The notes: generated by a model from the letters alone, not told the origin. A DNA stretch of 64,000 bases from Stellaceae bacterium (GCA_036490955.1 DASXCX010000080.1:4906-68905); one strand, 5' to 3'. Numbered from the stretch's first letter, positions 4,970 to 63,122 are shown. Translations and numbers: made by a program.

Positions 4970-6085
4970 ATGAAATTCTCGGTTTTCAACGGCATGCCTT
5001 ATGGGCGAACGCGCATGCCGGGCAATAAATGGCCGGTGCCCAACCAATATTTCGAACCCGATCAGGCGCGGCGCGCGGTCGCGTCGTGTCTCGAAGAAGT
5101 CGCGATGGAAGACGAGCTCGGCTTCGATTGGATTGCGTGCGCCGAGCATCATTATTCGCCCTTCAACCTCGCCCCCAACGTCACCGTGCTGGCGAGCGCG
5201 CTGACCCAGCATGTGAAGCGCGCCAAGATCGCGATCCTCGGCGCGTTGATCCCGCTCACCGGTAATCCGGTTCGCATCGCCGAAGAATACGCGATGATCG
5301 ATAATCTTTCCGGCGGCCGGCTGGTCGCGGGGCTGCTGCGCGGCGCGCCGTACGAGTATCTCGTCTACAACGTGAACCCGGCGGAATCGCGCACGCGTTT
5401 CGAAGAAGCGTGGGATTTGATTATCAAAGCCTGGACCGACCGCATGCCGTTCGGCTGGGAAGGCAAGTATTACCACTATCGCAACGTCTCGATCTGGCCG
5501 CGCCCGCTGCAAGAGCCGACGCCGCCGATCTATGTCTCTGGATCGAGCCGAGAATCCGGCGAGTTCGCCGCGCGCAAGAAAGTCGGGCTTGGCCTCGCTT
5601 TCACCAACATGCCGCTCGCCGCCGATGCCGCGAAGCATTATCGCGCGAAATGCGCCGAGTATGGCTGGGCGCCGGAAGCGGAGCAGATCATCTACCAACT
5701 CCCCATCCATGTCGGCGAGACCGACGAGCAGGCTTTCGATGTGGTGCGGCCGATGTTCGGCCACACCATGCCGGCCGGCGGCCTCAGCGACATGAACCGG
5801 TTGGTCGCGACCTCCGGCTTCTATGGCAAGGGCGATACCAATCTGCTCGCGCGGTTCAAGGATCTCACGGCCGACGAGCCGAAGAGCCTCGAAGAGGCGC
5901 TCGAGCGCGGCACGATGATCGTCGGTGGACCGAAAACCGTGCTGGAGCAGATCAAGCGGCTCAACCGGGAGATCGGCTGCGGCATGCTCAATCTCATCTT
6001 CGACCGGAGCGGCGCGCCGGATAAGAAACGGCGCTCGATCGAGCTCTTCGCCAAAGAAGTAATGCCCGCGGCGCGGGAGATTTGA
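4970..6085 (+). CDS. LLM-class (luciferase-like) flavin-dependent oxidoreductase
   Basis: Trimmed to MKFSVFNG (ATG 4970, GGGAGAGGGG upstream). Contains AEHHYSPF... and SGGRLVAGLLRG motifs. Confidence 0.8.
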   Translation: MKFSVFNGMPYGRTRMPGNKWPVPNQYFEPDQARRAVASCLEEVAMEDELGFDWIACAEHHYSPFNLAPNVTVLASALTQHVKRAKIAILGALIPLTGNPVRIAEEYAMIDNLSGGRLVAGLLRGAPYEYLVYNVNPAESRTRFEEAWDLIIKAWTDRMPFGWEGKYYHYRNVSIWPRPLQEPTPPIYVSGSSRESGEFAARKKVGLGLAFTNMPLAADAAKHYRAKCAEYGWAPEAEQIIYQLPIHVGETDEQAFDVVRPMFGHTMPAGGLSDMNRLVATSGFYGKGDTNLLARFKDLTADEPKSLEEALERGTMIVGGPKTVLEQIKRLNREIGCGMLNLIFDRSGAPDKKRRSIELFAKEVMPAAREI

Positions 6086-16369: not shown

Positions 16370-16467
16370 GCCGCGAAGACGGAACCGTCACGGCTCAGTC
16401 TGGCTTAGATCATGGGAACCGGAGGTCGAGCGGCGCCATTGTCACAAGCCAAAGAGAGAGCGATGTC

Positions 16468-50514: not shown

Positions 50515-51318
50515 CTAGCGTTTTTCTCCCTTATTCTCCTCGCGCTTCGCCCACTGCCATTTCGCCTCCATCTCGTCGAGGCTGGCGCTGCCGGGCTGTT
50601 TGCCGTCGGCGGCGAGCAAGGTCTCGACGCGGCGAAAGCGGCGCTCGAATTTGCGGCAGGCGCGGCGCAGCGCCTGTTCCGGATCGTGCTCGAGCTTGCG
50701 CGCGAGATTGACGACGGCGAAGAGCAGATCGCCTAGCTCGTCCTCGATACGGTCGCTGCTGTCCTCGGCGATCGCCTCGCAAACCTCGGCGATCTCTTCC
50801 TCGATCTTGTCGAAGACCGGATCGACATCGGGCCAGTCGAAGCCGACACGCGCGGCGCGGCGCTGCAGCTTCGCGGCGCGGGTGAGGGCGGGCAGTCCCG
50901 GCCCGATCCCGTCGAGCGCGCTCGCCGCGCCCTTGGCGGCGCGCTCCTTGGCCTTGAGGTCTTCCCAGGCCACGATCGTCGCCGCGGCATTGGCGATCTC
51001 GGCCGCGGCGAAGACATGCGGATGCCGCGTGATCATCTTGTCGCTGATCGCCTTGGCGACATCTTCGAACATAAAGCTGCCGGCTTCCTCGGCCATGCGC
51101 GAATGGAAGACGACCTGAAGCAGCAGATCGCCGAGCTCTTCCTTGAGCGCCGGCACATCGTCGGCCTCGGCGGCTTCGGCGACCTCATAGGCTTCCTCGA
51201 TTGTATAAGGCGCGATAGTTTTGAAGCTCTGCACGACGTCCCAGGGACAGCCGGTTTTGGGGTCGCGCAGCCGCGCCATGATCGTCAGGAGCCGCTGAAG
51301 CTGGGGCGTATCGGTCAT
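50515..51318 (-). CDS. mazG: Nucleoside triphosphate pyrophosphohydrolase MazG
   Basis: This is the C-terminal 267 aa of track ORF 50515..51849, starting MTDTPQLQRLLTIMARLRDPKTGCPWD. It has two EExxE-type MazG repeats (EEAYEVAEA, EEIAEVCEA). Confidence 0.88.
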   Translation of the reverse strand: MTDTPQLQRLLTIMARLRDPKTGCPWDVVQSFKTIAPYTIEEAYEVAEAAEADDVPALKEELGDLLLQVVFHSRMAEEAGSFMFEDVAKAISDKMITRHPHVFAAAEIANAAATIVAWEDLKAKERAAKGAASALDGIGPGLPALTRAAKLQRRAARVGFDWPDVDPVFDKIEEEIAEVCEAIAEDSSDRIEDELGDLLFAVVNLARKLEHDPEQALRRACRKFERRFRRVETLLAADGKQPGSASLDEMEAKWQWAKREENKGEKR

Positions 51319-51400
51319 GCGCGAGCCCCGGAAAATGCCCCGGAAATAAGGGGATCTCGGAGGGTTGGGGATGAATCTGTGCGCCATCGCCGGCACCCAA

Positions 51401-51428
51401 ATATCGCATAATGTATACTCTGGTGAAA
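51401..51428 (+). other. Degenerate dif-like site (left junction)
   Basis: ATATCGCATAA-TGTATA-CTCTGGTGAAA. The XerC-side arm and central hexamer are conserved; the XerD-side arm is degenerate. Confidence 0.6.
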
Positions 51429-51750
51429 CATTCGCGCTAACCTGTTCCGCAGTTGTTCCTAAGGCGATTATTGTAAAAACGGCGGCACTGATCTTAGCGA
51501 GGATCGCGCGATATTGCGCTTTTGCCCCTTCCGATCTTGCGCGCCAAGTATTCAGGTCTAAAAGCGCCGTAGCCGCATCGACACCAGCACGGTTAGCCAG
51601 TTCAATCATCGTGTCATCGTCAGGCCATGCGCGGCGCGTGCGGTATTGGGAAACGCTTTGGCGGATTATGTTTAGAGCATCTGCCAACGCTGTATCCGAC
51701 TTGAAGCCGCAGCGCTCGCGCGCACGGTCAAGGTATTCATCGATCGTCAT
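51403..51750 (-). CDS. Phage repressor-like HTH protein (DUF3693/CI-like); has no stop of its own in the integrated state
   Basis: MTIDEYLDRARERCGFKSDTALADALNIIRQSVSQYRTRRAWPDDDTMIELANRAGVDAATALLDL..., then a hydrophobic segment. GGAGAG lies 8 nt before ATG 51750. The frame runs across the left dif-like core into mazG, so the 3' coordinate is set at the core. Confidence 0.6.
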
Positions 51751-51954
51751 GTAGGGCGCTCTCCAAAGCGGTAGAGCTGCGATCATGCTCTCGAAAAAAG
51801 CTGTTGACAATAGACACACTCCATAGGCTCCGCTGTCAGCCACAGACACTAGCGATGGTGTCTCGGTCCTTCACCGGATCGCGGGCGCGCCGAACTCCAA
51901 GGCGGTACGCGCCCGCTTCCGGTGAGCGAGGCGAGTTTTCCGCAGCGGGCTTCC

Positions 51955-52055
51955 TGGCAGGTTCACCCGTTGCGGCTTTGGAGGCGAGCGATCGCCAGTG
52001 AGGCGGCGAAGAGGGGAAACCTTCCTCGCCGCCTCCAAATCCCCTGAACCTGCCA
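51955..52055. repeat. Nested/alternative inverted repeats (~100 nt structured element)
   Basis: Outer stem TGGCAGGTTCA (51955..51965) / TGAACCTGCCA (52045..52055). Inner stem TTTGGAGGCG (51977..51986) / CGCCTCCAAA (52030..52039). This competes with GAGGCGGCGA (52000..52009) / TCGCCGCCTC (52026..52035). Confidence 0.6.
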
Positions 52056-52104
52056 ACGGCGCGCGCGCAGCGCGCGACCGGCGAACGGTGAAGGAAGGTG
52101 GACG

Positions 52105-52512
52105 ATGAACATCGGTCGTTTAGTCCGAGCGCAAGAGCCCGGCGAATTTATCGGCAACATCACGACGCGAACGCTCGCCTTGCAGCTCGTCATGCGGCAA
52201 AGCATCCGCTGGAAATCGGCGGATAAAAATTCGCCGAAGTATGAACTCTTCGAGCGATCGCGGCATGGCGAAGTGGCGATCGGCATGGCGTGGGAAAAGA
52301 CGGCGCATACAGTCGACAATCTCGGCCGAAAATATCTCTCGCTGTTGCTCGATGATCCATCCTTCGATCAGCAGCTGCAATGCAGCGGCTTCGAGACCGA
52401 GGACGGCTACGACATCGTGTGGCAGCGGCCGCGCGACGATCGCAACTTTCGCCCTGATCCTGGGCGCGCGGCTGATCGACGCGACGATCCGGAAGTGTTC
52501 AATCGCGGGTGA
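52105..52512 (+). CDS. DUF736-domain protein
   Basis: 135 aa. IGNITTRTLALQLVM...KNSPKYELF...EVAIGMAWEK...YLSLLLDDPSF...YDIVWQRPR is the DUF736 pattern known from alphaproteobacterial plasmids and ICEs. GAAGGAAGG RBS. Confidence 0.7.
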   Translation: MNIGRLVRAQEPGEFIGNITTRTLALQLVMRQSIRWKSADKNSPKYELFERSRHGEVAIGMAWEKTAHTVDNLGRKYLSLLLDDPSFDQQLQCSGFETEDGYDIVWQRPRDDRNFRPDPGRAADRRDDPEVFNRG

Positions 52513-52844
52513 TGCGCGAGCTGGCGAATCATCGCGCGTGGCGCATCGGGATGCACGGTTACAAAATCACCGTGCATCCCGTGCACGCGTTCCCGTTCAT
52601 CGAGCAACGCGATATCGAATTGCAGCAGCGAGGCGCGGACTGGTGGTGCGTCGCGGTGTGGCGCTTAGAAAGCGCGGAGCCCATCACACTCGATCACTGG
52701 GCGCGTCTCGATCGCGAGCGTCTCGCGTTGCAGCTCTACGATTGCGCATATCTTCGCGAGCATCATCCGATCGTAGACATGCGAGCCGTTTACGACCATT
52801 GCGCGACGTGGATGGAACACGAAATCAGGAGACGCGCCGCATGA
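52509..52844 (+). CDS. Hypothetical protein (element early region)
   Basis: 111 aa. GTGA/ATG overlap with the upstream gene. Confidence 0.5.
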   Translation: MMRELANHRAWRIGMHGYKITVHPVHAFPFIEQRDIELQQRGADWWCVAVWRLESAEPITLDHWARLDRERLALQLYDCAYLREHHPIVDMRAVYDHCATWMEHEIRRRAA

Positions 52845-52915
52845 TTTGGCCGATTGTAAGCGTCGCGGTGATTTTTTCCTTCAGGTTTCGTCGGCGCGCG
52901 TGGTGGGACGAATGA
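52841..52915 (+). CDS. 24-aa hydrophobic micro-ORF
   Basis: MIWPIVSVAVIFSFRFRRRAWWDE. ATGA overlaps at both ends; AGGAG lies 9 nt upstream. Confidence 0.35.
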   Translation: MIWPIVSVAVIFSFRFRRRAWWDE

Positions 52916-53094
52916 TTTGGCTCATGCATCGCTGGCACGCGCGGCGCGAGATGCGTCGTGCATGGCGTCATATCAAGGATAGCGCGCGGCAGATGCGCCA
53001 GGATCGCGAAGTCGTCGCCGATCTCCATCTCAGCGAGGCGATCACGGCGTTGCGCTATGCTCGCTCCTGGCTTTACGAGGGACATTCTCGCTAG
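52912..53094 (+). CDS. Hypothetical 60-aa basic protein
   Basis: MIWLMHRWHARREMRRAW... ATGA-coupled to the micro-ORF. Confidence 0.45.
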   Translation: MIWLMHRWHARREMRRAWRHIKDSARQMRQDREVVADLHLSEAITALRYARSWLYEGHSR

Positions 53095-53098
53095 CGAC

Positions 53099-54223
53099 AT
53101 GTCGAGCGCCCTTGTCAATATCGCACACAGCTTTTCCGCTTCGCCCGATATCGTCAATATCGCACACAGCTTTTCCGCTTCGCCCGATATCGAAGGCAGG
53201 CGGCGGCTGTTTCAGCTGCACGCAACGGCGGCGCGGATCATGCGAGACGAGCGCGTCGCGACATGCGGCCGGCGCTCGATCTTCAGCCATGTCGACGTGC
53301 GTTGCGGCGATCGCGCATCCTTCGGTGGCGTCGAGACGTGCGGCTCGGTTTGGATGTGCCCGAAATGCGCCTCGCGCATCGCTGAGGGCCGTCGCCAAGA
53401 AATCCGCGCGCTCGCCGATCAGCATTGCCGCTCGGGTGGCGCGATCTACATGGCCGCGTTCACCATCCCGCATCAAGCGTGGGACAGGCTCGACGTGCGA
53501 GATGCTGAGGGAAAGCGAACCGATCAAGGATTGTTAGGCGCAATTTCGAAGTCTTGGTCAAAGATGATCAGCGGAAGAGCATGGCAACGTGAGTACGAAA
53601 AAGCGGGATGCAGCGGCGGCGTTAGAGCGTTGGAAGTTACTCACGGTCGCAATGGTTGGCATCCCCACCTGCACGCTGTTTTTTTTCTTTCATCGGACGA
53701 TGCCGCTGCTGAGTTCGGAGTTTTTCTTTTCGAGCGTTGGGCTCGCATCGTTCAACGTATGGGTTTCGGAGATTGCAATGCGAATATATGGCGCTTTGAG
53801 AAAGCCGCGAACTACGACGCGGTGACCGACTACGTCGTCAAAGGCAATTTCGATATGGAGTTGACGCGCGGGCACATGAAGCTCGCGAAGGGCGGCGGTC
53901 GATCGCCCTGGCAGCTCCTCGCCGATGCTCGCTTAGGCGACAATCGCGCGGTGTGGCTCTTCCGCGAATTCGCGACGGCGTTCAAGGGTGCGCGCCAATT
54001 GACTTGGTTCGGCGATCTTCGTGAGGCGCGTAGCGATCTAGACATTGCGAGCGCCGAGGAATCATCGCCGATCATCGGGCGCATTTCACGTCGCGCATTC
54101 TCGACAATCCATGCGCGCGGCGTTGCGTGCGACGTGCTGGAAGCGGCCGAGCGTGGCGGTTGGGGCGCGGTGTTGGAATTTTTAGCAGGGGAGGGGATAT
54201 GTCCCGATCTCAAATCGACGTAG
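53099..54223 (+). CDS. HUH rolling-circle replication initiator (Rep_1/pC194-phage type)
   Basis: Track ORF 52958..54223 trimmed to MSSALVN (ATG 53099). Zn-finger-like CGSVWMCPKC, HUH motif WHPHLHAVFF, and Tyr motif DYVVKG. Confidence 0.75.
   Translation: MSSALVNIAHSFSASPDIVNIAHSFSASPDIEGRRRLFQLHATAARIMRDERVATCGRRSIFSHVDVRCGDRASFGGVETCGSVWMCPKCASRIAEGRRQEIRALADQHCRSGGAIYMAAFTIPHQAWDRLDVRDAEGKRTDQGLLGAISKSWSKMISGRAWQREYEKAGCSGGVRALEVTHGRNGWHPHLHAVFFLSSDDAAAEFGVFLFERWARIVQRMGFGDCNANIWRFEKAANYDAVTDYVVKGNFDMELTRGHMKLAKGGGRSPWQLLADARLGDNRAVWLFREFATAFKGARQLTWFGDLREARSDLDIASAEESSPIIGRISRRAFSTIHARGVACDVLEAAERGGWGAVLEFLAGEGICPDLKST
53114..53191 (+). repeat. Perfect 39-bp tandem duplication (2 copies) in the 5' end of rep
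   Basis: GTCAATATCGCACACAGCTTTTCCGCTTCGCCCGATATC at 53114..53152 and 53153..53191. It is in frame (VNIAHSFSASPDI x2). The junction creates the hairpin CGATAT-cgtca-ATATCG. Confidence 0.95.
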
Positions 54224-54390
54224 TGATGCGTCACGTCGACAAACTCAAAGCAAGCGCATCGTTGACCGCGCTCGCGCCGAATGCGGCTCCGTTCGCGGAA
54301 GCGATCATGGCGCAGCTCGTCGACCTGGAAAATCGTATTGACGCGCTTCAGCGCGCCGTCGACGCGATGCGCGGAGCGCCGATCCTGTGA
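54199..54390 (+). CDS. Hypothetical 63-aa helical protein
   Basis: MSRSQIDVVMRHVDKLK... GGAGGGG lies immediately upstream of ATG 54199. Confidence 0.5.
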   Translation: MSRSQIDVVMRHVDKLKASASLTALAPNAAPFAEAIMAQLVDLENRIDALQRAVDAMRGAPIL

Positions 54391-54773
54391 AACAAGGCCC
54401 GCGCAACGTCGCGCTCGGCGCGATCTCTTGTCCGCTGTGTCACGAAGATATGCGCGTGACGACGAACAAGGAAGGTTATCCCACGGCGTATTGCGCGCCG
54501 TGTCGCTGTCAGCTCCAAGTCCGCGCGCCGCAAGGCTCGCTGCTACTTCTCGGAAAGGTTCACGAATGGCAAGGCAACGAAGCAATCGCCGAAATGGTCG
54601 ACGCAGCAGACGCGCGCGTGATGTACCAGAAGCTCCCCGCGTTGAAACCCCCGAAGCTGCCGCCTCACTTGAGCTCGACGAAGCCGGCTTCCTCAAAGAC
54701 GACAACGCCGGAACCGGAGAAGCCGAAGGATCAGCCGGCAAAGGGCCGCACGTTTCTGGGTCTGCCGCTCTAG
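54387..54773 (+). CDS. Zinc-ribbon protein with Pro/Lys-rich tail
   Basis: CPLC...CAPC four-Cys ribbon. GTG start overlaps the upstream stop. Confidence 0.5.
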   Translation: MKQGPRNVALGAISCPLCHEDMRVTTNKEGYPTAYCAPCRCQLQVRAPQGSLLLLGKVHEWQGNEAIAEMVDAADARVMYQKLPALKPPKLPPHLSSTKPASSKTTTPEPEKPKDQPAKGRTFLGLPL

Positions 54774-54778
54774 AGGAC

Positions 54779-55174
54779 ATGATTGCCGAAGCCGCGGCGT
54801 CGCCGCTCGGCAATAGCGGCGCGCCGCCGATCGACGCGCCGAAGGTCGAGCCTGCGCTGACGGCGGTCAACTTTCCCGGCATCTGCATGGGCGCTTCGGT
54901 GCTCATGTCGCTGGGCCTGAGCAAAATCGGTTTCGGCGCGCTGACCGAGAAGGAAGGCGAGGCGCTGACCAATTCCATGTTGCGCGTGGTGACGGCATTC
55001 GAGATTTCCATCGGCGATCCGCGCACGGCGGCGGTCCTCGATCTCGGCGGCACGCTCACCGCGATCATGTTGCCGCGTATCATGGACGACATGGCGCGGC
55101 GCAAAGTGCGCAACGCTTCGCCGACGCAAGCGGCGGCGAACGATCGCGCGGCCGATGAGCCTGCATCAGCCTGA
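54779..55174 (+). CDS. Hypothetical membrane protein
   Basis: This is the C-terminal part of track ORF 54281..55174, from MIAEAAASPL. It has hydrophobic segments FPGICMGASVLMSLGL and AAVLDLGGTLTAIML. Confidence 0.5.
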   Translation: MIAEAAASPLGNSGAPPIDAPKVEPALTAVNFPGICMGASVLMSLGLSKIGFGALTEKEGEALTNSMLRVVTAFEISIGDPRTAAVLDLGGTLTAIMLPRIMDDMARRKVRNASPTQAAANDRAADEPASA

Positions 55175-55751
55175 CAATCGGCTTTATCTCGGCATGGGCG
55201 GGAGCGGCAAAACGTGGCTCGCGCTGCGTCATGCCGATGCCTTCGACCGCGTCGTGTACGTTCGGCCGGAAGATCGTGAGCGCGCGCCCTATCCCGAGAC
55301 GCGCGATCGCATCGCCCTATGCCGCGCGATGCAGCAGCCGCGCTTTGCGGTGACGTTCACGACCGACGCCAACCCGGAGCTCTGGGAATGGGCGAACCGG
55401 GCAGCGATGGCGCGCGGTGACTGTCTCGTGATTTGGGAAGAGGCGTCATCGCTCGGCGACGGCAAGCCGCGCCTCCCAACCCATGCTCATGCGCTATGGA
55501 TGCGCGGCCGTCATGCGCGCTGCCGGGTGTTTGCCTGTTCGCAGCGGCCGTCGCGTATCTCACGCGATTGTACGGCGAACTTGAGCCGCGCCGTGATCTT
55601 CGCGACGACGGAGCCGAACGACCTAAAATTCTACCGGGACATGATCGGCGATCGCGCGGCGATCGAGCGCATCCGCTCTCTAGCGAGGTATGAGGCGGTC
55701 GATTTCAACCCTTTGGGAGGCTGGACGGTCAAGAAATCGCCCTTCGACTAG
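55155..55751 (+). CDS. FtsK/HerA-superfamily P-loop ATPase (candidate genome-packaging ATPase)
   Basis: 198 aa with no TM segment. Walker A GMGGSGKT, Walker B CLVIWEEAS, and the RGRH...SQRPSRIS motif typical of the HerA/FtsK clade. Confidence 0.7.
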   Translation: MSLHQPDNRLYLGMGGSGKTWLALRHADAFDRVVYVRPEDRERAPYPETRDRIALCRAMQQPRFAVTFTTDANPELWEWANRAAMARGDCLVIWEEASSLGDGKPRLPTHAHALWMRGRHARCRVFACSQRPSRISRDCTANLSRAVIFATTEPNDLKFYRDMIGDRAAIERIRSLARYEAVDFNPLGGWTVKKSPFD

Positions 55752-55840
55752 CTCGCTAGCGTAACGGCTTTTTCCCCAATGGCATGAAAAATGTCGTAGC
55801 GATGGTCAGGGCGATTTTGCCTCGAACCCCGGAGGGGAAC

Positions 55841-55927
55841 ATGTCTGTTCGGTCCATTGCCATGACCACGGTCGCGCTCTTCGTCGCGATCTACATCTAC
55901 GACAAGGTCAAGGGCTCGCTGCCCTGA
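55841..55927 (+). CDS. 28-aa single-TM peptide
   Basis: Below the ORF-track cut-off. MSVRSIAMTTVALFVAIYIYDKVKGSLP, with GGAGGGG RBS. Confidence 0.45.
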   Translation: MSVRSIAMTTVALFVAIYIYDKVKGSLP

Positions 55928-55973
55928 TCGGCCGTTAAGCGTCCCGCCTTAAGAACACAGAGGACTTCGCAAA

Positions 55974-57050
55974 ATGGCGATCAGCAATCAGTTCAAGCTG
56001 GTAAACCGAATTGGCACCTTCGCGCAGACGGTCGGCCGTCAGCCGCTCAATCTCGACGTAGGCGCGCCGCTCACCGGCATCGATATCCGGTTGCGTTACA
56101 CCGTCGCGACGGGAGCGACCGCGCCGACAGGCGTTCAGTACGGCGCGGTGTTTCAACTCGCGCAGCTCATCCAGCGCATGGAGCTGGTGGTCAATGGCGA
56201 GGACACCGTCATGTCGGTGCAGCCGTGGCTTTACATCGCGCGTTTCGCACAAGAGCGTGGCGGCCTTTTCCCGCGCGGCTTCGAGACGCCGATCAACATG
56301 GCGGCGAACCAGAACACGAACGTGGACGTCCATATCCCGATCCACTTCGATCTCATTCGCGGTCGCAAGCGCAATGACTGCGCGGTCGACCTTCGCGGCA
56401 TCCGCGCGGCGCAGCTCTATCTGACGTTCGGCGGCGCGGCCAATCTCTTTGGCGTGCCCGGCGCGACGGTGGCGATCTCGAATATCATCGTCGATATCGA
56501 GGCCACCTACATCGAGCAAGTGCCCGCGCGCGACAAGAACGGCAAGCCGATCCTCTTCGCGGTGCGCCAGCTCGACGAGCTAACGCTGCCGCTTCCGGGA
56601 GCGAACAATCAGACGACGCTCGACATCGATCAGCGGACGGGCGTCAACCTGATTTCGCTGGGCATGTTCTTTGATACGCTCATCGGCGGCGTGCATGGTG
56701 GCGACGATACCGGTCTCATCAACGGCGCGACGTTCCAGGGCGATTTGAAGCTGCGCAGCGGCGGCAGCTACTTCGGCGTGACGCAAGCGGCCTTCGTCAA
56801 GGCGCGTGCGCGCGACGAAATGCGCTTGATCAACGCCGGGCAGGCGCTCGACGTGGCGTCGATGCTCAATCCGGAGTTCCCCGGCTTCTTCTTCTGGGAT
56901 CAGCGTTACGACGGCAAATTGTCGACCGGCATTCCGACGGGTGCGCTGGACGCCAATTTGCAGCTCTTGCTCAACCAGAATTTCAACACGGGCAACACGA
57001 CGCTTTTCGTTCAACGCGAAAGCGTGCGTCCGCTGAACGTCGGTATCTAA
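55974..57050 (+). CDS. Candidate major capsid protein (beta-rich, jelly-roll type suspected)
   Basis: 358 aa with no TM segment, rich in beta-prone residues. Lies directly after the ATPase and is followed by a strong hairpin. This is assigned from position and composition, not from a recognised motif. Confidence 0.5.
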   Translation: MAISNQFKLVNRIGTFAQTVGRQPLNLDVGAPLTGIDIRLRYTVATGATAPTGVQYGAVFQLAQLIQRMELVVNGEDTVMSVQPWLYIARFAQERGGLFPRGFETPINMAANQNTNVDVHIPIHFDLIRGRKRNDCAVDLRGIRAAQLYLTFGGAANLFGVPGATVAISNIIVDIEATYIEQVPARDKNGKPILFAVRQLDELTLPLPGANNQTTLDIDQRTGVNLISLGMFFDTLIGGVHGGDDTGLINGATFQGDLKLRSGGSYFGVTQAAFVKARARDEMRLINAGQALDVASMLNPEFPGFFFWDQRYDGKLSTGIPTGALDANLQLLLNQNFNTGNTTLFVQRESVRPLNVGI

Positions 57051-57060
57051 TACTCGCGGA

Positions 57061-57099
57061 GGCGGCGCGCCGAGGCCGGTCTATAGGCAGCGCGCCGCC
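57061..57099 (+). terminator. Stem-loop after the capsid-candidate gene (possible attenuating terminator)
   Basis: GGCGGCGCGC (57061..57070) / GCGCGCCGCC (57090..57099), a perfect 10-bp stem. There is no T-tract. Confidence 0.35.
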
Positions 57100-57127
57100 C
57101 ATCCTCGATTAACTTCGCGAGGCGAGC

Positions 57128-57454
57128 ATGGACGAAAGCGCGGACACTCTCGACCTGGGCAGCGATCCGCTTGACGTTTTCTCGCAAGGCGGCAGCGGGA
57201 CGGTCGACACGCCGGCCGACAATCCGTCGAACGGCATCGATCTAAATTCGCTTCTCGGCAATCTGACGGGCGCGGCGACGACGGCTTTCACGGCGGCGCA
57301 GAACAGCGCGGCGGCGCAGTCGATCGCGCAAGCGCAGATCGCGGCGAGCGCGGCGAGCCCTGGCAACCCGCTGGCGATCCTCTCGACCGTCAATCCCACC
57401 TATCTGTGGATCGGTGCCGGCATCATCGTCCTCGCGCTGATCCTGAGGAAGTAG
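57128..57454 (+). CDS. Tail-anchored small membrane protein (acidic N-terminus, C-terminal TM plus basic end)
   Basis: MDESADTLDLGSD...YLWIGAGIIVLALILRK. Confidence 0.6.
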   Translation: MDESADTLDLGSDPLDVFSQGGSGTVDTPADNPSNGIDLNSLLGNLTGAATTAFTAAQNSAAAQSIAQAQIAASAASPGNPLAILSTVNPTYLWIGAGIIVLALILRK

Positions 57455-57458
57455 CGCG

Positions 57459-57818
57459 ATGCGTTTTGATGCGCGCATAGGCGAATGGATCGAGCCTAGC
57501 GATCGGCTCTGTTCGCTTTTCGATCTTGGCGCGAAGGTATCCGGCAACACTGACAGCACGGCGACGCAAACGTCGAGCGTGAGCTTCATCCCGAGCGTCA
57601 GCAACAATTCATCGCAGCCGCTGGTGTCGAGCTTTCCGGCCGGGCAGGGCCTGTCGACGCTCAACACAGCCTTGCCCGGCTCCGCGGCGTTCCTGCCGTC
57701 GACCTATGCCGGCTTGACGACGGACACGGCTAGCTCGACCACGCCGTCGCTGACCACGCTGTTGCTGCTGGGCGCGCTCGCGGCCGGCGCATTCTTCCTC
57801 TTGCGGAAGCACCTATGA
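57459..57818 (+). CDS. Tail-anchored small membrane protein
   Basis: ...GQGLSTLNTALPGSA...LLLLGALAAGAFFLLRKHL. Shares the GLSTLNTALP motif with the next gene. Confidence 0.6.
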   Translation: MRFDARIGEWIEPSDRLCSLFDLGAKVSGNTDSTATQTSSVSFIPSVSNNSSQPLVSSFPAGQGLSTLNTALPGSAAFLPSTYAGLTTDTASSTTPSLTTLLLLGALAAGAFFLLRKHL

Positions 57819-58183
57819 GCGCGGGGCTTGTGCCGATCGACGTATCCATCGCCGCGCCGGCGAGCGGGACGTTTGAGAGCGGCGCTGAGAACGATCTTGG
57901 CTTGTCGTTCAATCCGGGCTTTGTCGTCGGTCCGGGCTTCCTGACGCAAAGCGGTACGGCATCGCCTTCGGCGTCGAGCAGCCAGGAAAGCTTCCCGTCG
58001 TCGAGTTCGCCCGCGACGGCGTTGGCCAATCCGCCTGCCGGAATTGGCCTATCGACCCTGAACACCGCGCTGCCGAATTCGGCCGGCGCGCTCGCCACGA
58101 CGTCGACGGCAAGCAGCTCGCTTCTGCTGTGGCTGCTGATCGGCGGCGCGGCAATTCTTCTTTTGAGCGGAGGGAAACGCTGA
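57815..58183 (+). CDS. Tail-anchored small membrane protein (paralogue of 57459..57818)
   Basis: ...GIGLSTLNTALPNSA...LLLWLLIGGAAILLLSGGKR. ATGA overlap with the upstream gene. Confidence 0.6.
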   Translation: MSAGLVPIDVSIAAPASGTFESGAENDLGLSFNPGFVVGPGFLTQSGTASPSASSSQESFPSSSSPATALANPPAGIGLSTLNTALPNSAGALATTSTASSSLLLWLLIGGAAILLLSGGKR

Positions 58184-58317
58184 TGGCGTGGGGCAACTCG
58201 AGCGACAACGGTATCCGGGCGAGCGGCGGAACGATCGGCATGTTGCTGGTCGTCGGCGGCGCGCTGCTGGCGTTGTGGATGATTCATCCGAAATTCTCCG
58301 CGAGCCTCGGGCGGTGA
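58183..58317 (+). CDS. 44-aa single-TM protein
   Basis: MAWGNSSDNGIRASGGTIGMLLVVGGALLALWMIHPKF..., overlapping the upstream stop. Confidence 0.45.
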   Translation: MAWGNSSDNGIRASGGTIGMLLVVGGALLALWMIHPKFSASLGR

Positions 58318-58623
58318 ATGTGCGGCGGCAGCTCGTCATCGCAAACATCGGCGACGTCGACCAACACGACGGCGGTCACGAGTGTCAGCAACGTTACAAC
58401 CAATGTGCCGATCACCGTCGACACGTCGGATTTGGCGGACGCGTTGAAGGCGCTCGCGGGTGCGGACGAGGTGGGCGCGGTCGTGTCGGGCGCGGCGCAA
58501 GTGCAAAGCGCGAAGATCGCCGCGAGCGCCGGGCCTTCATGGTCGACGATCATCACGATCGGCGGCGCGTTGATCGGTATCGCGATCGCGCTGCATCTCA
58601 TCAAGGTAAAGGGCTTTAAATGA
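58318..58623 (+). CDS. Tail-anchored small membrane protein (Ser/Thr-rich N-terminus)
   Basis: MCGGSSSSQTSATS...WSTIITIGGALIGIAIALHLIKVKGFK. Confidence 0.55.
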   Translation: MCGGSSSSQTSATSTNTTAVTSVSNVTTNVPITVDTSDLADALKALAGADEVGAVVSGAAQVQSAKIAASAGPSWSTIITIGGALIGIAIALHLIKVKGFK

Positions 58624-59453
58624 CGACGCGCAATCGCCCGAATTACCAGATCTATTATCTGCCGCTGACGAACGCCGGGCAGATGGACGTGCCGGCGATC
58701 GGCACGCGCGTTGCGATGCTCGGGTGCTTCACCGGCGCGACGGTGATTTTCAGCGGCGGCGCTCAGCAGCTCGCGGGCGGTACGCCAACAGCGGGCACGG
58801 TCAATGTCCAGGTTGGCAAGACGCTGGGCGACGGCATTCCCTTCGCGCCGGGCAACAAGCTTCGCGTCGATAACAAATTTGATTTTCTGCGTTTCAGTTG
58901 GTCGGCGCAGGCCGGTGTCATCGCGATCATGGCTGTCAGCGACGACGCGGAAGGCAACGGCATCGAATTCGACGCGCCGCCTGCCGTCGCGCTCGGCAAC
59001 TTCACGCTGCAACAAGGCGGCAACGTCGCTCAGGTCGATTTCAACGGCGCGCTACAGGTGCAGCTCCGCGACGTGTTCGGCGGCTTGATCGGCGAGGGTG
59101 ATCCGTCGAGCGGCGGCCTGCGCGTCGACAATTCAACGCGCATCGGCGCATCGTCTGTCTCGCTCAATGGGCCGGCGGCAGGCGCGACGACGATCCTGGC
59201 GGCAGGATCAAACACAAACGGCGTCACGGTGAAGGCCGGCTTCACTGTGCTCGGCGGCTCAGCGGTTTTCTTGCAGCTCTGTAGTGGCGCGACGCCGCCC
59301 ACGTCGCTGACAAGCAATCCGTCACTGCTCACGGGTTTCAGCACCTTCGGCGTGCTTCCCGAGGATATCTATTTGCCGCCAGGGCAAGGGCTATATGCGT
59401 GGGAAGGCTCGGCCGGCGCTGGCGGCATGTTCGGAACCTACACGGTGCATTGA
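58620..59453 (+). CDS. Candidate vertex/spike (receptor-binding) protein
   Basis: 277 aa, Gly/Ala/Val/Thr-rich, beta-prone, no TM segment. Assigned from position after the membrane-protein cluster. Confidence 0.4.
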   Translation: MTTRNRPNYQIYYLPLTNAGQMDVPAIGTRVAMLGCFTGATVIFSGGAQQLAGGTPTAGTVNVQVGKTLGDGIPFAPGNKLRVDNKFDFLRFSWSAQAGVIAIMAVSDDAEGNGIEFDAPPAVALGNFTLQQGGNVAQVDFNGALQVQLRDVFGGLIGEGDPSSGGLRVDNSTRIGASSVSLNGPAAGATTILAAGSNTNGVTVKAGFTVLGGSAVFLQLCSGATPPTSLTSNPSLLTGFSTFGVLPEDIYLPPGQGLYAWEGSAGAGGMFGTYTVH

Positions 59454-59455
59454 TC

Positions 59456-59686
59456 ATGACAGTCGAGATTGGTCGGAACGTCACCAATTTTGCGAACGGG
59501 TCGAGCGTCGTCGCTGTGACGACGGCAACGCTACCCGACGAAACCAAGCCCGTGAGCCAGGACAACGCGCCGAGCGCCGTTGCCACGGCTTACACGATCA
59601 CGGCGGGACCGGACGGCGCGATGCCGCCCGGCTATCCCGATGCATTTCCCGGCGCGACGGTGAGCGACAATGATCAAACCGGCTGA
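59456..59686 (+). CDS. Hypothetical 76-aa protein
   Basis: Trimmed to MTVEIGRNVTNF (ATG 59456). Confidence 0.45.
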   Translation: MTVEIGRNVTNFANGSSVVAVTTATLPDETKPVSQDNAPSAVATAYTITAGPDGAMPPGYPDAFPGATVSDNDQTG

Positions 59687-60095
59687 TCTTCTGCCGATCA
59701 TTCAATGCGAAGCGCCCGATTTCGATCCGGCGCTGATCCTCGGCTTCGTGCAGACCGAAAGCAGCTTCAACGAGCGCGCGTTTCGCATCGATCGCAACGG
59801 CGGCAGCTACGGCTTGATGCAGCTCGATCTAAGTACCGCGCGCGATCGCGGCTATCCCGGCGATGCCTTCGGTCTTTACGATCCGAAAACCAATATCCAT
59901 TACGGCGTGGCGCAGCTCCGCTGGATCAACCGCTACCTCGCGTCTTATTCGGCGGTCGGCCTGCAATCGATGATCGCCGCATACAACGAAGGCGTGGGCC
60001 GCGTCGTCAAGGGCAATCCCGATCCGCGTTACGTCGCCTCGGTGATCGCGTCGCGCGATCGTTTCCGCGCGATCCTGCATGAAGGCGTGGCATGA
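59670..60095 (+). CDS. Lytic transglycosylase (SLT domain)
   Basis: 141 aa. Catalytic QTESSFN, GLMQL and AYNEG motifs. Confidence 0.8.
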   Translation: MIKPADLLPIIQCEAPDFDPALILGFVQTESSFNERAFRIDRNGGSYGLMQLDLSTARDRGYPGDAFGLYDPKTNIHYGVAQLRWINRYLASYSAVGLQSMIAAYNEGVGRVVKGNPDPRYVASVIASRDRFRAILHEGVA

Positions 60096-60256
60096 CCGTC
60101 ATCGATGCGGATTACGTCCTGAAGCAGCTAGAGGCTCACCAAGCCGAATGCGCGCGGCGCTGGTGGTCCGTGATGAGTTTAGCGATCGGCAATCTGGTGG
60201 TGCTGGTCGCGGGTATGGCGACAATCATCGTCGACCTTCTTAGCCACCATCATTGA
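60092..60256 (+). CDS. 54-aa holin-like single-TM protein
   Basis: Below the track cut-off. MTVIDADYVLKQLEAHQAECARRWWSVMSLAIGNLVVLVAGMATIIVDLLSHHH. ATGA overlap with the SLT gene. Confidence 0.45.
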   Translation: MTVIDADYVLKQLEAHQAECARRWWSVMSLAIGNLVVLVAGMATIIVDLLSHHH

Positions 60257-60266
60257 GGAGAAAAGC

Positions 60267-60452
60267 ATGAACGCTTCGCTACTCGCATTGCTCGCCCTAC
60301 TGGTCGAGAATGCGCCGAAGATCACGGCCGATGCTGTGAAAACCTATGCCGATATCGCCCATGGCGAGGGTGGTCTCGGTAAAGTGCAAACCGCGCTGGC
60401 CGATCTGTCGAAGACGGTGAGCGACGCGGTTGCGGCTCAGCAGGCCGCGTAA
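60267..60452 (+). CDS. Hypothetical 61-aa protein
   Basis: MNASLLALLALLVENAPK... AGGAGAA RBS. Confidence 0.45.
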   Translation: MNASLLALLALLVENAPKITADAVKTYADIAHGEGGLGKVQTALADLSKTVSDAVAAQQAA

Positions 60453-60453
60453 C

Positions 60454-60606
60454 ATGGCCGACGAAACCGAGGAAAAGAAATCGCCGCTCGCCGCGCGCAT
60501 TGCGGCGCTGGAGGACGGGTTCCAAAAGTTGGAGAAGCTGGTGATGAGCCACCACGTCAAATTCAACTGGCCGGAAGAGGCGACCGATGGCGAAGCGAAA
60601 GCGTAA
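60454..60606 (+). CDS. Hypothetical 50-aa charged helical protein
   Basis: Below the track cut-off. MADETEEKKSPLAARIAALEDGFQKLEKLVMSHH... Confidence 0.35.
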   Translation: MADETEEKKSPLAARIAALEDGFQKLEKLVMSHHVKFNWPEEATDGEAKA

Positions 60607-60661
60607 GCGTCGGATGCCGAAGCGCGGCAAAAACGGCCGTTTCAAAAAGCGGCGGTGATCG

Positions 60662-60895
60662 ATGGACGGTGACAGCTCGTCGCAATTCTCGACGGATGCC
60701 CTTGGCAATCTGATCGGCGAAGCGCCGGGCTCACCGTTCATTACCAATTCCGGCGACGCGATCGGCGCGGGCGGTTCGGTGCTCAGCACCGGCGCGGGTA
60801 GCTTGCTCGGCGACCTTGTGCCTTCGCTTCCCTGGTACGTCTGGGTGGCGCTCGGCGTCTTAGGCTTCGTTCTCTTGCGCGATGTGGTGAAGTGA
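60662..60895 (+). CDS. Tail-anchored small membrane protein (MDGD class)
   Basis: MDGDSSSQFS...LPWYVWVALGVLGFVLLRDVVK. Confidence 0.55.
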   Translation: MDGDSSSQFSTDALGNLIGEAPGSPFITNSGDAIGAGGSVLSTGAGSLLGDLVPSLPWYVWVALGVLGFVLLRDVVK

Positions 60896-61182
60896 TGGAC
60901 GGCGACACGGTTCAAGCCAACATCGACGATCAGCCCGGCATTTCGGGCGGCTTCAATCCGCTCGCGTTGATCGATTCGACGCTGAGCGACGCGCAGTTGA
61001 ACAATCTCGCCGGCTCGCCGTCGACCGATGCCGCGCTCGCCTCGGGCGACGAAAGCTTGCTTTCGCAGCTCGGCGCGCCGTCGAGCGCGACGGGCCTCGG
61101 CTCGATCTTCGGCAATGTGCCGAGCTGGTTTCTGATCGGCGCTGTCGGGCTGGTGGTCGTGGCCGTGATGATGAGGAAGTAG
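60892..61182 (+). CDS. Tail-anchored small membrane protein (MDGD class)
   Basis: MMDGDTVQANIDD...VPSWFLIGAVGLVVVAVMMRK. ATGA overlap. Confidence 0.55.
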   Translation: MMDGDTVQANIDDQPGISGGFNPLALIDSTLSDAQLNNLAGSPSTDAALASGDESLLSQLGAPSSATGLGSIFGNVPSWFLIGAVGLVVVAVMMRK

Positions 61183-61184
61183 CG

Positions 61185-61448
61185 ATGGACGGCAGCGACA
61201 CGTCACAGCAAAGCGACGACAGCACGCCGCAAGAAATCCTGGGCGTGTTTCAGGGGAGTGTGTCGACGCCGCTGGGGCCGGCCGATGCGTTCTCGACCTT
61301 GAGCGTCGACCCTTCCGTCCTGGCCGGCAACGCGACGGCGGCCGGCTCGGCTTTCGCGAGCGGCGCGCTTGGGCAGCTCACGCCGTTTCTGCCCTATCTC
61401 GCGATCGGCACCGTCGTGCTGGTCGCGGTGATCGCGCTGAAAGGGTGA
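61185..61448 (+). CDS. Tail-anchored small membrane protein (MDGD class)
   Basis: MDGSDTSQQSDDS...LPYLAIGTVVLVAVIALKG. Confidence 0.55.
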   Translation: MDGSDTSQQSDDSTPQEILGVFQGSVSTPLGPADAFSTLSVDPSVLAGNATAAGSAFASGALGQLTPFLPYLAIGTVVLVAVIALKG

Positions 61449-61894
61449 TCCGGCGCGCGACCGCGGCCGATCTTGATCCCGTCGCGGCGATCGCCGTGGC
61501 GCTTTGCGCGACGTTCGGCCCGGACTATCCCAAGCCCGATCGTTCACATATCCTCGCCGAGCTGCGCCGGGTTATCGAGAACGGTTTTATCCTGGTAAGC
61601 GAAAGGTGCGGGACGATCGATGGCGCGCTGGCTTTGGAGCGCGGCCGGTTTTCATTCTCGGCCGAGCCCGTGATCTTCGATCGCGGATTTTACGCGACGG
61701 GCAGCGGGCGGCAGCTCCTCGCCGCAGCGCGCGCGCTCGGCCGAGCGCTGGGCTTGCCGGTCTATGTCACGCGCTTCACGCGCGCGACCGTGCGGCTCGC
61801 GGCCGAGCGTCCATCGACACGAGTTGAGCGGTGGGGTCGGCCAGACCCTGACGCTATAGCAATCAAAAAATATATCACTGACAGCCCGGCTTGA
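61445..61894 (+). CDS. Hypothetical protein, possibly GNAT-fold
   Basis: 149 aa. GTGA overlap with the upstream gene. Only the N-terminal IRRATAADLDPV resembles GNAT N-termini, so the call is weak. Confidence 0.35.
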   Translation: MIRRATAADLDPVAAIAVALCATFGPDYPKPDRSHILAELRRVIENGFILVSERCGTIDGALALERGRFSFSAEPVIFDRGFYATGSGRQLLAAARALGRALGLPVYVTRFTRATVRLAAERPSTRVERWGRPDPDAIAIKKYITDSPA

Positions 61895-61930
61895 CGGGTC
61901 TCGGTCCCGGCCTTCAACGGGGCTGGCGTG

Positions 61931-62077
61931 CTACGGCGATGGAGCGGGCGCGGCCGGGCAATCGGAGTAGTGGAAAAACGGCATCCCGACTTCGTGACAG
62001 GTCGAGCCGTCCGGCGCTTTCTGGACGTTGACGCAACCGGCGAGCGCGAGGCAAAGCAGCAAAAAAAGCGGTTTCAT
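61931..62077 (-). CDS. 48-aa lipoprotein
   Basis: Below the track cut-off. MKPLFLLLCLALAGCVNVQKAPDGSTCHEVGMPFFHYSDCPAAPAPSP with a LAGC lipobox. Its ATG overlaps (ATGA) the stop of the HTH frame upstream. Confidence 0.5.
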   Translation of the reverse strand: MKPLFLLLCLALAGCVNVQKAPDGSTCHEVGMPFFHYSDCPAAPAPSP

Positions 62078-62504
62078 CCGTTCCCCTTTAAGGTGCGACG
62101 GACGATCTTACACACCGTGACCTCGTGAAGGCCAACCCGGAGTCCGATGGCGGCGTTGGAAAGCCCCCTTCGGGCGAGCCGCATGAGATTTCACGGTCGC
62201 GCGAGATGCGCGCCAGGGCCTTCCTCTGGCGCTCTGTGGCGGCTTTGGAGAACCGTATCGCTGGCTTGCCCCAAATCTTTTCATGCCGCGCGGCCTGATC
62301 GGCGCGATCGCGGGCGAGCGCTGCCAGCACGTCATGCGCCTGGGCGACGGCTTTGAGCGCGTCGGCCGGCAGATCGAGCAGGGGCGAGGGCAAAGCCTCC
62401 CCCAAGGTTTTGCGGTGCCGAGGCACACCCCGAAGGGTTGCGGTGAAACCTTGATTGATTGTTAACACGATGCCCAGGGCGCGTAATCGTGAGCGGCCCG
62501 GCAT
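62074..62504 (-). pseudogene. HTH-domain regulator with an apparent -1 frame break near 62185..62190
   Basis: Frame of 62088..62504 reads ...AATERQRKALARISRDREI, then runs into nonsense. The -1 frame continues (N)LMRLARRGLSNAAIGLRVGLHEVTVCKIVRRTLKGNG* (62184..62074), a clear HTH. Confidence 0.4.
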
Positions 62505-62571
62505 GTCATATGCTCGACTTTGAGATAGCCAGCCATCGCTGAGCTGAGGCAGAGCACGACGAAAACCGTTC

Positions 62572-62757
62572 TCAGCATGGCAACGGCATCCGGGCGAGGA
62601 CGCGGGTGACGGCGTCGGCGCCGGCCAGGGCCAGCTCGCGATCGTGGGTCAAGCCGGGCAGCGGACAGCCCGGCACGTCGCTGACGATATCGCCGATCGC
62701 CGCCGCGAGCTGCTCATAGGCGACCATCAGCGTCAGCAGTTTCTCGCGCTGGGTCAT
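62572..62757 (-). CDS. Hypothetical 61-aa protein
   Basis: ATGA-coupled to 62754..62954. Confidence 0.45.
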   Translation of the reverse strand: MTQREKLLTLMVAYEQLAAAIGDIVSDVPGCPLPGLTHDRELALAGADAVTRVLARMPLPC

Positions 62758-62954
62758 GGCGCTATTTTTTTAGCTGCCAATCTGGCGAAGCGAGCGGCTT
62801 CGCGACGCAGTCGCGCAAGCAACGTGGGACAGGGTGGAATGTCGCCATCGGCAATGGCGCGTTCGATTAGTTTAGCGTGTTCTAAAGCTTCAAGCGCTTT
62901 GTCGAGCAGTTCACGAATCGTTTCGAATTCGAAGCCTTCAGGTATAATCGTCAT
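62754..62954 (-). CDS. Hypothetical 66-aa helical protein
   Basis: MTIIPEGFEFETIRELLDKALEALEHAK... Visibly lower GC than its surroundings. Confidence 0.5.
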   Translation of the reverse strand: MTIIPEGFEFETIRELLDKALEALEHAKLIERAIADGDIPPCPTLLARLRREAARFARLAAKKIAP

Positions 62955-63047
62955 GCTGCGGCTCGCGGGGAGAGAGCGCGGGCGCGGTAATTAGATACCG
63001 CGTTGCCTAAGCCTGGGGACCGATCGGTGCGCCGTTTCCGCCGCCGA

Positions 63048-63075
63048 AACGCGCATAATGTATATTATGGGAAAT
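63048..63075 (+). other. dif: dif (XerC/XerD chromosome-dimer resolution site)
   Basis: AACGCGCATAA-TGTATA-TTATGGGAAAT. 23/28 identical to the E. coli dif 28-mer as I recall it, including the whole central hexamer. Intergenic. Confidence 0.75.
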
Positions 63076-63122
63076 AATGGCGCCACGTTTCACTTCACAT
63101 ACCCAACGGCTAGAGGTAGACA

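Follow-up and report, generated by a model that had tools for sequence, protein, structure and literature searches.

An integrase-less double jelly-roll prophage at the dif site of a soil Stellaceae bacterium

XerCD/dif integration has been proposed for Jorvik of Rhodobacter, one of the integrase-less, tailless membrane phages (PMC10589892; OP588643), and likewise for NO16 of Vibrio (PMC9966536) and PhiCjT23 of Flavobacterium (PMC9719478). In Vibrio, a systematic analysis of 258 prophages with double jelly-roll (DJR) capsid proteins distinguished full, left-armed and right-armed types of attP (PMC12715192). The genomes of TLCphi and of the Vibrio DJR IMEXs (integrative mobile elements exploiting Xer) include a gene for XafT, a protein combining an HTH with DUF3653 that activates XerD (PMC6744903, PMC12715192).

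Here we describe an element at the dif site of a member of the Stellaceae (Alphaproteobacteria, Rhodospirillales), a soil alphaproteobacterium. Judged by its sequence, the element represents a new lineage of the already described dif-integrating DJR phages, unrelated to them in sequence, and it appears to be set apart by having no XafT/DUF3653 homolog and by an attP that lies inside a regulator ORF. The window, that is, the whole 64-kb stretch of DNA that was analysed, has a G+C content of ~63% and carries two dif-like sites on the same strand and in the same orientation. The left one, attL (51401..51428, + strand), reads ATATCGCATAA-TGTATA-CTCTGGTGAAA and is a hybrid, in which the XerC arm ATATCGCATAA is that of the host (11/11 identical to the host dif), the spacer is TGTATA, and the XerD-side arm CTCTGGTGAAA is foreign, phage-derived and degenerate. 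The right one, attR (63048..63075, + strand), is a regenerated full dif, AACGCGCATAA-TGTATA-TTATGGGAAAT, with a phage-derived XerC arm AACGCGCATAA, the same spacer and the host XerD arm TTATGGGAAAT; this last arm is identical at 11/11 positions to that of the empty-site dif described below and matches published alphaproteobacterial dif sites (PMC2731167).

Compared with each other, attL and attR agree at 8/11 positions on the XerC side, 6/6 in the spacer and 6/11 on the XerD side. The 13-mer CGCATAATGTATA occurs exactly at 51405..51417 and 63052..63064 and nowhere else in the 64-kb window, where no third copy was found with ≤2 mismatches either, and it is therefore not a dispersed repeat. The two flanking sites are thus as earlier described: the original prediction had given both 28-bp sequences, their orientation and the positions of the 13-bp direct repeat, all of which are borne out by the window sequence, and recomputing the arm identities and the conservation of the central hexamer returned the same values. 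The dispersed-repeat alternative that it had raised is answered by the two-copy count in the window.

The left flank of attL is housekeeping DNA, as had been predicted, with the host mazG at approximately 50515..51318 on the - strand (Pfam MazG, 1.8e-42). Orthologous loci were fetched from GTDB species genomes with MazG as the query, and mazG orthologs 83-90% identical to that of the window adjoin dif in five of them (L001-L005). In four (L001, L002, L003 and L005; MazG 87-90% identical), the empty site ATATCGCATAA-TGTATA-TTATGGGAAAT is present exactly, ~100 bp upstream of mazG and in the orthologous position, so the empty allele anticipated by the original prediction exists verbatim in Stellaceae relatives without the insert. 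The XerC arm and spacer of attL are identical to this dif in all four, the left flank of the window aligns with them as far as 51417, and no part of 51418..63064 is present in any of them. One closely similar 28-mer also lies near mazG in more distant Rhodospirillales loci, and among the published dif sites of Alphaproteobacteria the motif is matched by, for instance, that of Magnetospirillum (PMC2731167). The insertion thus lies at the host chromosomal dif, as indicated by the empty sites, the conserved neighbourhood and the match to published dif sequences; GC skew in the 10-kb flanks of the relatives was too weak to place the terminus, or a terminus switch, independently.

In the relatives the far flank encodes Lactamase_B/TatD/metG, and in the window the last 0.9 kb, beyond the intact dif, have no match to the relatives. 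A longer contig from JGI covers the same locus (L066; 49499 is added to its positions to give those of the window), and on it this DNA belongs to an IS1595-family element of 2,637 bp (L066 13582..16218, + strand; 63081 to ~65717 in window coordinates, past the window end). The element is not part of the phage; it carries a transposase with Pfam hits and two passenger ORFs, is bounded by inverted repeats (29/40 matching), and is accompanied by an 8-bp target duplication, AATAATGG, at 63073..63080, which shares 3 bp with the end of the XerD arm and thus of dif. Beyond it, the flank that adjoins dif in L003 and L001 resumes. The right flank is therefore non-syntenic and lower in GC because an IS1595-family insertion abuts dif, and a second island at this place was rejected in favour of this insertion with its target-site duplication. 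With the left flank and the flank that resumes after the IS, both true flanks of the prophage are accounted for.

The DNA between the two crossover points, 51418..63064 (+ strand, 11,647 bp), corresponds to one genome copy linearised at attP. Its capsid protein has 27 close homologs, many of them on contigs of 9.4-11.6 kb. One of these contigs, L068, whose capsid protein is 85% identical, overlaps at its ends by 30 bp and so closes to a circle of 11,545 bp with a single dif-like site, ATATCGCATAA-TGTATA-GTATTGGGAAG, whose XerD arm is degenerate; two others (L080 and L090) have one similar site each, again with the XerC arm and spacer intact and the XerD arm degenerate. With L068 permuted to start at the attP spacer, the two are collinear over their full length (8 ordered HSPs covering 71.5% of the insert). 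Joining 63064 to 51418 restores a 148-aa HTH ORF, whose alignment with the homologs in L068, L080 and L090 spans the junction. The restored ORF and the collinearity show that the prophage ends are the two halves of attP, which is deduced to be AACGCGCATAA-TGTATA-CTCTGGTGAAA, with a spacer identical to that of dif and a degenerate XerD arm. The spacer is in fact identical at 6/6 positions in attL, attR and the attP sites of the relatives. The deduced attP has the sequence that had been predicted for the circular junction; the exact junction of the window element had 0 matches in the JGI metagenome contigs, in which a scan with the capsid profile found only 4 loci. An extrachromosomal attP form was seen for the relatives, as the L068 circle and as the single sites of L080 and L090.

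Five further relatives occupy this dif in other genomes of the Stellaceae, and in some the XerC arm is the degenerate one. The locus L076/L077 has the architecture of the window, with ATGTCGCATAA-TGTATA-TTATTCGGAAA as the site nearer mazG and a full dif at the opposite end. The loci L074/L075 (end sites at 5261..5288 and 16390..16417) and L086 (487..514 and 11616..11643) are its mirror image, having a perfect dif on the mazG side and AAAACGACCTG-TGTATA-TTATGGGAAAT at the far end, which implies a right-armed attP that has no XerC arm (4/11). In L088 the element abuts a full dif beside the Lactamase_B flank. Both flanks are syntenic with the empty-site genomes in L075 and L076. For L078 only a divergent mazG-side site is available, the contig ending before the other prophage end.

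Two relatives depart from this arrangement and are recorded here as separate observations. The phage-side site of L078, next to the HTH gene (6006..6033), reads TTGTCGCATAA-TATGTA-GTTTCGTGAAC and so has another spacer; it is separated from mazG by an MFS transporter gene. In the circular relative L089 (1..9567, 127-bp terminal overlap, ~9.4 kb), a single strand carries every gene, the leftward HTH module is missing, and dif-like sites with a score of ≥17/28 are absent; L089 may be a variant of the family that does not integrate, either strictly lytic or plasmid-like.

The gene content was profiled with a six-frame Pfam scan of all 88 stop-to-stop segments of ≥70 aa in 51380..63100, in which only DUF736, SLT, Phage_CI_repr, HTH_3 and Rep_1 were detected. 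The rightward early operon opens with a DUF736 gene (52105..52512, +; 1.8e-17), and the same gene position is kept in L068, L074, L080 and L088. A Rep_1-like rolling-circle replication initiator follows (53057..54223, +; phrog_11698, 1.2e-69), which has a weak match to Pfam Rep_1 (1.7e-4), the HUH-type motif WHPHLHAVFF and the Tyr motif TDYVVKG, and whose homologs in the relatives also score with Rep_1. The 5' part of the Rep ORF contains a perfect 39-bp tandem duplication (53114..53192, 2.0 copies), by which 13 aa are duplicated in frame; each unit starts with GTCAATATCGCA, of which ATATCGCA is common to the XerC arm. This duplication could be an iteron or origin element, or could simply be recent. 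Between the Rep and ATPase genes, a 128-aa ORF (54387..54773, +) encodes a CxxC...CxxC zinc-ribbon-like motif and a Pro/Lys-rich low-complexity C-terminus; it has no family match, and its position is kept in the relatives.

The morphogenesis genes come next. A small packaging ATPase of 198 aa (55155..55751, +), a P-loop protein with the Walker A motif GMGGSGKT, matches phrog_2666 (2.8e-23) and, weakly by tblastn, the packaging ATPases of Bam35 and GIL16c. It lies directly upstream of the capsid gene, so that an FtsK/HerA-type packaging ATPase adjoining the capsid gene is indicated by sequence (Walker A and phrog_2666). No sequence of the phage collection, the PDB or IMG/VR was matched by the capsid protein (358 aa; 55974..57050, +), which was identified by fold comparison only; a profile search of 1.84 billion representative proteins retrieved only 96 clusters. 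Its AlphaFold model, built from 19 homologs (pLDDT 79, pTM 0.83), was matched by Foldseek to PRD1/PR772 P3, the STIV MCP, PBCV-1 Vp54 and PM2 P2 with E values of 1e-15 to 1e-11, the matches to PRD1 P3, STIV MCP and PM2 P2 having TM scores of 0.65-0.76 and a probability of 1.00. Among predicted viral structures (BFVD), the best matches were STIV, Bacillus phage Wip1 and Gluconobacter phage GC1. Five small ORFs downstream (57128..58623, +), each with a C-terminal hydrophobic helix and syntenic in all relatives, encode putative virion membrane proteins. The 277-aa protein that follows (58620..59453, +) has no family match and stands at the spike/penton position of PM2 and Jorvik, matching Jorvik gp14 in position; by gene position only, it is a putative spike or penton. 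A lytic transglycosylase (SLT; 59670..60095, +; Pfam SLT, 3e-15) precedes the late small ORFs (60092..61894, +), several of them with TM helices, and a 149-aa ORF, among which only a non-significant acetyltransferase hint was obtained. Altogether, at least nine (about ten) small ORFs with a single hydrophobic helix encode putative membrane proteins.

All ORFs for structure, replication and lysis are intact and collinear with the circular L068, and the insert is a complete prophage of a small, tailless, putatively membrane-containing DJR virus with a circular genome. The gene set (DJR capsid, ATPase, Rep, SLT and putative small membrane proteins) is that expected of a tailless virus with an internal membrane and not of a filamentous one, and the packaging ATPase points to dsDNA. 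The original prediction was right that the DNA between the sites is phage-like; its assignment to a CTXphi/VGJphi-type phage is contradicted by the DJR capsid of a tailless virus. A filamentous phage was rejected on the same ground, no inovirus or other filamentous-phage families being found in the insert by family scans. The head module of a tailed phage, a gene transfer agent and a capsid-forming satellite were also considered, and were rejected on the strength of the capsid fold and of the family scans.

No recombinase or transposase domain was found by Pfam in any of the 88 six-frame segments of 51380..63100, nor did the small leftward ORFs of the insert match a recombinase, in a search that covered recombinases having a Pfam model; the predicted lack of such an ORF thus agrees with the scan. 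Directly repeated sites that are reciprocal hybrids, one of them regenerating dif, flank an element in which no integrase, recombinase or transposase was detected by the six-frame scan. It is therefore very probably an integrase-less prophage that entered dif by reciprocal exchange, with XerC and XerD of the host as the likely catalysts, which makes it an IMEX. The earlier reading of the locus as an IMEX is upheld by the empty site, the lack of a recombinase and the circular relatives, and the part that named XerC as the mediator can be kept as a tentative reading of the sites. No xerC or xerD was found among ten ORFs of the window of about the right size, which were all housekeeping genes. 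Having no integrase of its own, the element almost certainly uses the host recombinases.

Two other explanations of the flanking sites were weighed. By one, the left site would resemble dif by chance or belong to a dispersed repeat, and the DNA of phage type would have come in by an unrelated route. The window alone gives this some room, as the 13-mer has a chance expectation of 0.32 at ≤2 mismatches and two matches were reached in 2/100 shuffles under this lenient test. The comparative evidence (empty sites and a circular relative) is much stronger than such within-window statistics: only two copies occur in the window, the empty site is exact, the boundary at 51417 is exact, the gene restored by joining the ends is conserved, and the same architecture recurs in several independent genomes. 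We consider a chance site already refuted by the comparative data, its probability being practically nil. By the other explanation, the element has a recombinase of its own that the profiles missed, either the HUH Rep or an unannotated ORF, and dif is merely a conserved target. Most ORFs indeed have no family assignment, a Rep endonuclease is present, and no XafT-like factor was found. Against this, the sites are exact reciprocal hybrids of 28-bp XerC-spacer-XerD sites, swapped within the spacer and inner arm, and such exact products are the signature of an Xer tyrosine-recombinase reaction and not of HUH nicking and joining. In addition, two relatives with unrelated replication modules (L076 and L090) are nevertheless at dif or have dif-like sites, and no catalytic recombinase domain was present in the six frames. 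We thus regard an own recombinase as very unlikely and retain integration by the host XerC and XerD.

As exact reciprocal hybrids, attL and attR point to a tyrosine-recombinase reaction in which the strands were exchanged inside the spacer or at its edges. We propose that the dif ATATCGCATAA-TGTATA-TTATGGGAAAT and a left-armed attP, AACGCGCATAA-TGTATA-CTCTGGTGAAA, would undergo reciprocal site-specific recombination, with the crossover within the shared 13 bp, CGCATAA-TGTATA. The products would be the crippled hybrid attL beside mazG and a regenerated functional dif, attR, at the far end, and the regeneration of a functional dif would leave the host still able to resolve chromosome dimers. As for the pathway, our guess is that XerC would start the exchange at the intact border of XerC arm and spacer, and that the resulting Holliday junction would be left either to XerD, whose action the identical spacer would permit, or to replication. 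A XerD-first route like that of TLCphi would need an activator. The HTH protein and the small leftward ORFs had no match to XafT/DUF3653 up to E 10, and none was detected in the six-frame scan; the lack of a DUF3653 protein favours an exchange initiated by XerC for the left-armed element of the window. The right-armed relatives, in turn, suggest that some XerD activation must exist in the phage family.

The position of attP has consequences for the regulator. In the window element, L068, L080 and L090, attP lies inside the CDS of a CI-like HTH regulator, 36-48 codons before the stop. In the prophage, the 5' two-thirds of this gene are at 51418..51750 (- strand; start ATG at 51750; Phage_CI_repr, 8.5e-7; phrog_638, 7.6e-23), and the 3' end with the stop codon, cut from the 5' part by integration, is at 62951..63064 (- strand). 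The 3' end encodes the basic tail FRRRKR...ALSPRAAA, which is kept as FRRR(K/N)R...ALSPRAA in the proteins of L068, L080 and L090. The truncated gene reads through attL, in frame, into mazG, and the result is an uninterrupted ORF of 444 codons (50515..51849, - strand), of which the N-terminal third is the phage CI-type HTH. The JGI annotation calls this read-through as one 431-aa gene; it is a read-through of the HTH gene into mazG and not one real gene. The fusion is probably an accident of frame, and it could yield a fusion protein or place mazG under a phage promoter.

Two small leftward genes, encoding proteins of 61 and 66 aa (62572..62954, - strand; the 61-aa protein is homologous to a 62-aa protein of L068), lie downstream of the HTH gene in the circle and are cut off from it in the prophage. 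A further leftward regulator with a C-terminal HTH (62077..62462, - strand) is frameshifted: tblastn with its L080 and L068 homologs showed it split over two frames, and the alignment with both places a 2-nt insertion near 62187-62190 that splits off the C-terminal HTH. The same insertion is present in the assembly L066, which differs from the window at 1 position in the 11.7 kb of the prophage; with so few differences the two assemblies represent the same population and say little on decay.

The frameshift means that this copy may be defective, and it is possible, though we think it rather doubtful, that the present copy is a decaying, immobile remnant, Xer-integrated once and now unable to excise or to form virions. 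Such a remnant would fit the frameshift in a conserved leftward HTH regulator in both assemblies, the splitting of the CI-like gene with the loss of a promoter for the genes downstream, the IS that landed beside attR, and the fact that no contig with the circular junction was found in the JGI metagenome contigs. It agrees less well with the structural, replication and lysis ORFs, which are intact and collinear with the circular relative, and with the intact cores of attL and attR; the two assemblies, as essentially the same population, carry little information on it. We favour a complete prophage at dif. More speculatively, and with a low probability in our estimate, Xer recombination at dif would act as a genetic switch, giving an integration-dependent immunity that a host recombinase would operate with the help of an Xer-activating or directionality factor not yet recognised. 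Under such a switch, the regulator would lose its conserved basic C-terminal tail upon integration and, here, become fused in frame to mazG, and the leftward genes downstream of it would be parted from their promoter. If this were true, the lack of a XafT/DUF3653 homolog and the right-armed attP without an XerC arm in some relatives would imply that factor.

With this locus, the hosts of integrase-less DJR phages that target dif, which were aquatic members of Vibrio, Rhodobacter and Flavobacterium, come to include the uncultured soil Stellaceae. Across roughly a dozen genomes and contigs, the in silico set of states is complete, comprising the empty site, attL, attR and the circular attP. The occurrence of left-armed and right-armed attP in one family that has no XafT homolog offers a natural test set for the hijacking of Xer without known activators. 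Automated annotation mis-calls such prophages, the phage regulator and mazG being called as one fused gene.

Among the known systems, the Vibrio dif-type DJR prophages and NO16 (proposed Asemoviridae; PMC12715192, PMC9966536) resemble the Stellaceae element in being integrase-less DJR elements of the IMEX type at dif, and the Vibrio prophages also resemble it in the variation among full-length, left-armed and right-armed attP, as seen across the Stellaceae family, and in a repressor beside attP. They differ in their gammaproteobacterial hosts and in a XafT homolog (P15) in the lysogeny module, none being detected here. Their attP lies between two terminal genes, whereas that of the Stellaceae element lies inside the regulator ORF, and a tblastn search of the phage collection with the Stellaceae capsid protein gave no match. 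Jorvik (PMC10589892; OP588643) shares an alphaproteobacterial host, a small circular genome, of dsDNA in Jorvik and probably so here, a virion membrane, which is putative for the Stellaceae element, and further an ATPase, a DJR capsid, small membrane proteins, an SLT lysin and the lack of an integrase; its attP and attB are likewise dif-like, with XerCD integration proposed. Its replicase is of a different type, and its dif-like attB lies in the RuBisCO operon, whereas the Stellaceae family uses a conserved dif beside mazG. Sequence kinship with Jorvik was rejected: phmmer of Jorvik against 121 family proteins gave no matches, the hhalign probability for the capsid proteins was 0.2%, and the ATPases share only a motif. 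Membership of the Corticoviridae by sequence was likewise not supported, PM2 P2 being matched at the fold level only.

PhiCjT23 and the FLiP-like phages (PMC9719478) are tailless as well and contain a membrane, as is predicted here, with a rolling-circle Rep and dif motifs flanking the prophages; unlike the element of the window, which has 11.6 kb and a packaging ATPase, they have 6-8 kb ssDNA genomes and Bacteroidota hosts. TLCphi and the gonococcal genetic island (PMC6744903) show the same site pattern, in which the XerC arm is good, the spacer equals that of dif, the XerD arm is degenerate, and one functional dif is regenerated. TLCphi differs as a filamentous satellite needing XafT for XerD, no such protein having been found here; the gonococcal island differs in being no virus but a large secretion-system island.

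CTXphi and VGJphi share dif integration by the host XerCD without an integrase. The CTXphi attP is folded ssDNA formed from two inverted sites, whereas here there is one site of the double-strand type, the circular relatives having a single dif-like position each and no paired inverted sites of the CTX kind. In the VGJ type the spacer differs from dif on the XerD side, whereas here it is identical at 6/6 positions. In form, then, the attP is like the site of TLCphi or of the gonococcal island, or like the left-armed sites of the Vibrio DJR prophages, and unlike those of CTX or VGJ. Of the patterns named in the original prediction, likeness to the gonococcal island stands, and the CTXphi/VGJphi type does not fit a single site with a 6/6 spacer.

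For an attP within a regulator gene, there is a parallel with the mycobacteriophages BPs, Brujita and Charlie, in which, reportedly from 2013 work by Broussard et al., attP lies inside the repressor gene, and whose integrated and free forms are said to encode regulators with different C-termini. These phages integrate by their own tyrosine integrase at a tRNA attB, whereas the Stellaceae element would use dif and a recombinase of its host.
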